Source: Escherichia coli (GTDB lineage Bacteria; Pseudomonadota; Gammaproteobacteria; Enterobacterales; Enterobacteriaceae). Taken from it: a DNA stretch of 64,000 bases. The first letter of the stretch is position 1. Each line of letters opens with the position of its first letter. The stretch lies in the NCBI RefSeq assembly GCF_003334315.1, contig NZ_QOWR01000021.1; one strand, given 5' to 3'. Positions 47,840-47,867 of this stretch are shown here, piece by piece. The position numbers and the translations under genes were made by a program. The notes beneath the pieces were generated by a model that had not been told where the DNA came from, did not search any database, and saw only the letters and a program-made list of their open reading frames with translations.

Positions 47840-47867
47840 TTAGAGTGTCTCGTTTTTGTAAAGTTCC
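47840..47867 (-). promoter_or_regulatory. SigmaE-dependent (autoregulated) rpoE promoter
   Basis: Minus strand GGAACTT - 16 nt - TCTAA, about 80 nt upstream of the rpoE ATG. Confidence 0.8.

Follow-up and report, generated by a model that had tools for sequence, protein, structure and literature searches.

Identification of the sigma-E promoter of rpoE

The minus-strand element GGAACTT-N16-TCTAA at positions 47840..47867 of the 64-kb stretch of Escherichia coli DNA analyzed here (hereafter, the window) is, with hardly any room for doubt, the known promoter of the rseD-rpoE-rseA-rseB-rseC operon that is recognized by sigma-E (RpoE, sigma-24) and is denoted rpoE P6 (Klein 2016) or, formerly, P2 (1995). 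This promoter, on record since 1995, is a textbook component of the envelope-stress response and, as such, is already known. The present analysis shows the motif itself, where it lies, that it is unique in the window, and that it is deeply conserved; the mapped transcription start and the dependence on sigma-E are taken from reviews and from Rhodius 2006. Comparison with P6 of E. coli K-12 revealed no substantive difference: the element, the locus, the distance to the start codon, the sigma-E-type motif, and the autoregulation of rpoE-rseABC are the same.

When the minus strand is read, the -35 element GGAACTT (47867..47861), which matches the sigma-E consensus at all seven positions, is followed by the 16-nt spacer TACAAAAACGAGACAC (47860..47845) and then by TCTAA (47844..47840), in the context ...GATGCGTTAC GGAACTT TACAAAAACGAGACAC TCTAA CCCTTTGCTTGC.... 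The coordinates given in the earlier note were exact, and its description of the site as a close match to the sigma-E consensus was apt. TCTAA fits TCnAA, and exactly 16 nt separate it from the -35 box. The GTC triplet is matched only in part: in the -10 element CTCTAA (47845..47840, with the TC-AA core), C replaces the consensus G. The sigma-E consensus is quoted in the literature, with Rhodius 2006 and Rhodius 2012 among the sources, as GGAACTT (-35) and GTC (-10); the motifs derived by Rhodius 2006, where the starts were identified by 5' RACE, are GGAACTTTT (-35) and (T/C)GGTCAAAA (-10). By the latter measure, the -10 box of the rpoE promoter is weak, with about five of the nine positions matching the consensus, and thus the promoter depends on its perfect -35 box.

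A pattern search on both strands yielded a single exact match (12/12) to GGAACTT-N16-TCTAA in the window, and no such match was found in any of 100 dinucleotide-preserving shuffles. Sites that differ from GGAACTT-N16-TCNAA at no more than two positions are about as frequent as chance predicts (13 in the window versus 14.2 expected), so that the perfect site alone stands out. The last base of the -10 box lies 83 nt upstream of the rpoE ATG (47757), close to the distance of about 80 nt that had been estimated by eye. The divergent spacer between rpoE and nadB (47758..48164; the nadB ATG is at 48165, on the plus strand) is 407 bp long, again in keeping with the previous estimate of about 400 bp.

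Upstream of the -35 element, the alignment of enteric sequences contains a conserved A-rich block with the consensus AAAAACAAAGGCGTAAC. In the window, this region includes the A-rich tract ACAAACAAAAACA (47890..47878, minus strand), approximately at -57..-45 from the start. A/T-rich elements have been reported at -48/-49 and -57/-58 of sigma-E promoters (Rhodius 2006), and rpoE is listed among the promoters that show a UP-element effect (Rhodius 2012). Judging by sequence and position, the tract is probably a UP element that aids the sigma-E promoter.

Generic searches of the region 47100..48300 returned little else. There were no matches at 9 or more of the 12 positions to the sigma-70 pattern TTGACA-N16-18-TATAAT, compared with 1.6 expected in shuffles, a generic scan found no terminators, and no Rfam covariance model matched the leader or the spacer at E <= 1. 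At the sigma-E site itself, the best alignment to the sigma-54 pattern TGGCAC-N5-TTGCW (47842..47827) has three mismatches and lacks the GG. A full-text literature search with the promoter sequence found nothing.

Transcription start, operon structure, and autoregulation

The RefSeq genes around the site are lepA, rseC, rseB, rseA, rpoE, rseD, nadB, and trmN. On the minus strand, rpoE (47182..47757; 191 amino acids plus the stop codon) is followed by rseA (46499..47149), rseB (45543..46499), and rseC (45067..45546), and these three genes (45067..47149) are co-transcribed from the rpoE promoter. The identities of RpoE (TIGR02939, 328.7 bits, cut-off 236), RseA (NF008116, 425.7 bits, cut-off 263), and RseD (NF033697 leader_RseD, 104 bits, cut-off 35) were established using curated NCBIfam equivalog models. 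The proposal that the promoter stands in front of rpoE-rseABC is thus borne out, with all four genes annotated by RefSeq and two of the products, RpoE and RseA, confirmed by NCBIfam. In the operon order rseD-rpoE-rseA-rseB-rseC, the sigma-E promoter precedes an ECF sigma factor gene that is co-transcribed with the gene for its anti-sigma factor.

According to two reviews, rpoE has six promoters, with starts at -381 (P1), -327 (P2 and P3), -218 (P4), -153 (P5), and -75 (P6). P6, formerly P2, is described there as recognized by the sigma-E polymerase and positively autoregulated, with reference to Raina 1995, Rouviere 1995, and Klein 2016; Rhodius 2006 also describes an rpoE promoter that is recognized by sigma-E and positively autoregulated. 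With the A of the rpoE ATG counted as +1, the -75 start, as quoted in the reviews, maps to 47832, and we place the start at G47833 or C47832 (47832..47833, minus strand), G47833 being 7 nt past the -10 box; starts of sigma-E promoters are usually purines located 6-8 nt past this box. The earlier note had anticipated a transcript 5' end near 47833 and positive autoregulation, and both are on record for this promoter.

The established mode of action is the best supported one. The sigma-E polymerase engages GGAACTT through domain 4 and (C)TCTAA through domain 2, with the 16-bp spacer between them, probably with help from the A-tract upstream. Initiation at 47833 or 47832 produces a 75-76-nt leader, followed by rpoE, rseA (encoding the anti-sigma factor), rseB, and rseC. 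Under envelope stress, degradation of RseA frees sigma-E and thus increases transcription of rpoE, which amounts to positive autoregulation; sigma-E also boosts its inhibitor RseA, from both the rpoE promoter and the internal rseA P3, and so allows rapid shut-off. Given that the anti-sigma genes are expressed from the same promoter, the feedback is, on balance, not purely positive.

Within the rpoE coding sequence lies another sigma-E promoter, rseA P3 (CGAACCC-N16-TCAGA with GTC; 47384..47411, minus strand; start at G 47377). Its start has been published, in a paper later than Rhodius 2006, as lying 228 nt upstream of the rseA ATG, and 47149 + 228 gives 47377, which is indeed a G, 7 nt after the P3 -10 box. 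This promoter was not caught by our motif search with up to two mismatches and had been missed in the earlier note as well. The rseA P3 promoter (Rhodius 2006) shares with the rpoE promoter the spacer length of 16 nt and the distance of 7 nt between the -10 box and the start. However, it combines a weak -35 element, CGAACCC, with a consensus-like -10 element, TGTCAGAA, that includes GTC, which is the reverse of the arrangement in the rpoE promoter, and, unlike the latter, it transcribes rseABC only.

Overlap of the promoter with rseD

The leader ORF rseD (51 codons; 47754..47909, minus strand) precedes rpoE, and its TGA stop codon overlaps the rpoE ATG (ATGA). The sigma-E motif at 47840..47867 falls within annotated rseD, a point that the earlier note missed, so that transcripts from this promoter cannot encode full-length RseD. 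According to a paper later than Rhodius 2006, every promoter of rpoE is located either within rseD or upstream of it.

Several additional features of rseD were observed. The only in-frame rseD ATG that the sigma-E transcript retains is at 47813 (Met33), which would leave a 19-residue tail, with no obvious SD sequence. Among the orthologous loci examined over 160 nt upstream of rpoE (L002-L031), the full-length rseD frame is intact in few genera, namely, E. albertii, Citrobacter, Enterobacter sp. Ag1, and a Klebsiella sp. The C-terminal sequence of RseD (...LGR-YLG*) is widely kept, probably, because it overlaps the SD sequence and start region of rpoE, and the ATGA stop/start overlap is kept as far out as Vibrio and Zobellella.

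Predicted pairing of the leader 5' end with the rpoE start codon

The 75/76-nt leader of the sigma-E transcript (47758..47833, minus strand) contains four GGA motifs, at 47811, 47788, 47773 (within the SD sequence GGGGAG), and 47759 (overlapping the AUG), none of which the earlier note had picked up. Three CsrA sites have been reported in the rpoE leader. The GGA motifs appear to fit these sites; any assignment of individual motifs to individual sites would be provisional.

In the alignment of 23 Enterobacterales sequences, the most conserved block is not a promoter box but GCTTGCTC, which begins at the predicted +1. The corresponding 5' end of the transcript, GCUUGCUCA (47825..47833, minus strand), is invariant or conserved in at least 90% of the enteric sequences, and the flanks vary. 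In the consensus structure predicted by RNAalifold, CUUGCUCA (+2..+9) pairs with UGAGCGAG, which consists of the UG of the rpoE AUG and codons 2-3. In the proposed helix, the conserved 5' end is the 5' arm (GCUUGCUC), and the 3' arm is UGAGCGAGC (47748..47756, minus strand), which begins with the UG of the AUG, includes codons 2-3, and ends at the first base of codon 4. None of the 23 enteric sequences loses any of the 8 pairs, and all 11 of the one-sided changes observed are compatible with pairing (C to U opposite G; A to G opposite U). Given that the 3' arm is coding and does not vary, compensatory changes cannot be seen in the helix. The duplex energy ranges from -9 to -18 kcal/mol. Compared with all upstream 14-nt segments, the duplex ranks in the best 0-4% in the window analyzed here and in all but one of the 30 enteric loci, the exception being a Pantoea MAG (6.6%).

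The predicted helix is present in both the minimum-energy and the centroid folds of the E. coli leader, the overall fold of which is not unusually stable (z = -0.8). The predicted probability of the helix is approximately 1.0 when transcription starts at G47833 and 0.47 when it starts at C47832, and drops to 0.11 and 0.01 in the longer transcripts from P5 and P4, respectively. Likewise, over a range of 3' ends, the predicted probability that the AUG and codon 2 are unpaired is 0.05 from G47833 and 0.15-0.43 from C47832, and the folded transcripts from P5, P4, and P2/P3 give values of 0.20-0.75. When random sequences took the place of the 5' arm, not one of the 200 versions concealed the start codon as effectively as the native arm. 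Across 31 enteric sequences (30 loci and the window), the mean predicted accessibility of the start codon in the transcript starting at the sigma-E start is 0.12; this transcript is the least accessible of the five lengths in 19 of the 31, and the relief in the longer transcripts is lineage-dependent. The folding models suggest that, in E. coli and closely related species, the helix would form mainly in the transcript starting at the sigma-E start and much less in those from the upstream promoters.

Outside the enterics, the 5' end differs. In Aeromonadales, another 5' arm (CGCUUA) is predicted to pair with the same UGAGCG; in Vibrio, a conserved 5' UGCUC pairs, instead, with the SD sequence GGAGU; and in Pasteurellaceae, pairing of the 5' end was found neither with the start codon nor with the SD sequence. 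The duplex ranks in non-enteric genomes are unreliable, given that a fixed start-site offset was used for them.

Taken at face value, the models raise the possibility, which we consider less likely than not, that the sigma-E-driven rpoE mRNA carries a built-in translation brake or 5'-end stabilizer, with the 5' end hiding the start codon. The conservation of the 5' end could act, instead, at the DNA level, as part of the initial transcribed region or of a protein-binding site. Ribosomes translating rseD would cross the 5' arm, which corresponds to the rseD codons Cys-Leu-Leu, and melt the helix; translational coupling between rseD and rpoE has been reported. In the searchable literature outside Yakhnin 2017, where the rpoE leader was dissected, no description of this helix was found.

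The same structure bears on the main role of the promoter. Conceivably, the element is a genuine sigma-E promoter that serves, primarily, negative feedback or homeostasis through the supply of RseA and RseB, and rpoE itself is poorly translated from this transcript owing to the 5' pairing and to CsrA. The transcript does carry rseABC, and its initial 8-9 nt can base-pair with the UG and the seven bases that follow, with the 8 pairs retained throughout the aligned enterics; furthermore, the modeled pairing from G47833 is nearly complete, with the start codon predicted to be far less accessible than in the longer transcripts, and the leader is reported to contain the three CsrA sites. However, positive autoregulation from the sigma-E promoter is published, the helix shows no compensatory change, one of its arms being coding, the fold as a whole is not unusually stable, and the pairing probability is roughly halved if the start is C47832. 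On balance, we regard such a predominantly negative role as doubtful, and prefer the reading of the element as the positively autoregulated promoter of the operon.

Conservation of the promoter

A 701-nt query across the spacer has exactly one match per genome in all 5,426 complete E. coli genomes, with 95-99.9% identity, and the 61-nt segment that includes the promoter is identical in 5,255 of these. The window and its best-matching E. coli genome differ at four positions in 6.7 kb. The sole difference in the 701 nt around the site, at 47674, is a synonymous third-position change in an Arg codon of rpoE (CGA vs CGC).

For a broader comparison, 80 orthologous rpoE loci (L002-L081), from E. albertii to Shewanella and Pseudoalteromonas, were fetched with the RpoE protein, so that the position of the ATG was known in each. 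When the upstream 450 nt were scanned for the motif, the top-scoring site matched at least 9 of the 11 positions in 71 of the 80 loci, compared with 6% of the shuffles and, on the antisense strand, with one locus of the 80. This top-scoring site falls within -135..-80 in 73 of the 80 loci versus 6.4% of the shuffles, and GAACT...TC in the exact N16 register is found within -135..-80 in 71 of the 80 gammaproteobacterial loci. The spacer length is 16 in all best matches. In the 23 aligned Enterobacterales, GAACT is invariant, the 16-nt spacer is not conserved in sequence, and, in the -10 box, T is invariant and C, C, A, and A are invariant or conserved in at least 90% of the sequences, followed by a variable discriminator. 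This box-spacer-box footprint is the pattern expected of a promoter.

The autoregulated RpoE/AlgU-type promoters of Vibrio, Aeromonas, Pasteurellaceae, Shewanella, and Pseudoalteromonas likewise contain, with few exceptions among the loci examined, GAACTT-N16-GTC, located -82 to -130 relative to the ATG, but differ from the enteric ones in having the GTC triplet and other leader sequences. The -10 triplet of the rpoE promoter (47843..47845 in the window) is CTC in 28 of the 32 Enterobacterales and GTC in all 41 of the other gammaproteobacteria. This enteric-wide departure from the consensus may weaken the positive feedback.

Given that the motif is located inside annotated rseD, where GGAACTT encodes part of Tyr-Gly-Thr-Leu, its conservation might reflect coding constraint on the overlapping frame rather than promoter function. 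We consider this to be highly improbable. The full-length ATG frame is present in few relatives (E. albertii, Citrobacter, Enterobacter sp. Ag1) and is absent or truncated in most of the loci that keep the motif, with only 3-5 open codons in Vibrio, and the conservation follows the box-spacer-box pattern and is not codon-periodic. Because the rseD frame is missing in most loci that keep the boxes, coding constraint cannot explain their conservation and was rejected as its source. Even less probable is a chance match to the sigma-E consensus without promoter function, for which the chance-level frequency of two-mismatch matches in the window might speak, but which is effectively refuted by the presence of both boxes with equal spacing and position in 71 of the 80 orthologous loci while the spacer varies, as well as by the uniqueness of the perfect match, its absence from the 100 shuffles, its location on the right strand at a promoter's distance from rpoE, and the start published at -75 as quoted in the reviews. 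We therefore retain the identification of the element as the sigma-E promoter.

Other promoters in the rpoE-nadB spacer and the sigma-54 question

Further promoters in the spacer, which the earlier note had considered probable, are indeed on record: the starts at -153, -218, -327 (two promoters), and -381, as given in the reviews, map to 47910 (P5), 47975 (P4), 48084 (P2/P3), and 48138 (P1), all on the minus strand (47910..48138). Putative -10 boxes are located 7-8 nt before the starts of P5 (TATAAT, 47923..47918), P4 (TACTCT, 47987..47982), and P3, for which a candidate extended -10 element, TGnTATTTT (48099..48091), would fit this sigma-70 promoter that shares its start with P2. The generic sigma-70 scan was empty because no good -35 box accompanies the -10 boxes of P3, P4, and P5. 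By the position quoted in the reviews, the P5 start at 47910 immediately precedes the rseD ATG (47909..47907), with the perfect TATAAT (47923..47918) 8 nt farther upstream, and rseD has no recognizable SD sequence; so positioned, the rseD mRNA from P5 would be essentially leaderless.

The same reviews attribute P2 to RpoN with QseF, P3 to RpoD with RcsB, and P4 to RpoS. The failure to find a convincing sigma-54 -24/-12 element by eye, as conceded in the earlier note, was reproduced by systematic scanning even though an RpoN/QseF promoter is reported in this spacer. Scanning of the spacer and the beginning of nadB in the rpoE sense revealed no GG-N9-11-GC suitably placed for the -327 start, and GG is entirely absent from the 45 nt that precede this start (48084..48130), which thus lack a canonical -24 element. 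The GG-N10-GC scan that had been proposed as a check yields a single sense-strand match within the spacer; this match (47806..47793) lies past the sigma-E start. Matches to TGGCAC-N5-TTGCW across the window occur at chance frequency (332 versus 343 expected), and the paper on gSELEX for RpoN does not mention the rpoE-nadB spacer. With no GG-N9-11-GC that fits the -327 start and no GG in the adjoining 45 nt, the published RpoN/QseF promoter of rpoE, as far as can be read from the DNA, is not canonical. The sharing of a start by a sigma-54 and a sigma-70 promoter, as reported for rpoE P2/P3 at -327, is seen also in glmY; unlike in glmY, the sigma-E element of rpoE is not of the sigma-54 -24/-12 type.

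We also searched the region 47914..48436 for TGTC-N10-GACA, which we take to be the motif of QseF/GlrR activator sites. With up to two mismatches, there are 8 matches compared with 2.8 +/- 1.7 expected, and the best one (one mismatch; 48348..48331) lies inside nadB, roughly 250 nt before the -327 start.

Implications for the sigma-E response

Confirmation of the promoter as such adds nothing new; it shows that promoters for alternative sigma factors can be recognized from the raw sequence, as was done in the earlier note. If the proposed helix is real, it would provide a structural basis for the reported translational coupling of rseD and rpoE, and the yield of RpoE per transcript would be set by the promoter that fired, damping the positive feedback loop; the weakening of the -10 element by CTC in place of GTC would act in the same direction. 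Such an arrangement, if true, would explain both how rseD boosts the translation of rpoE and how a self-activating sigma factor is restrained, which would be of modest importance.
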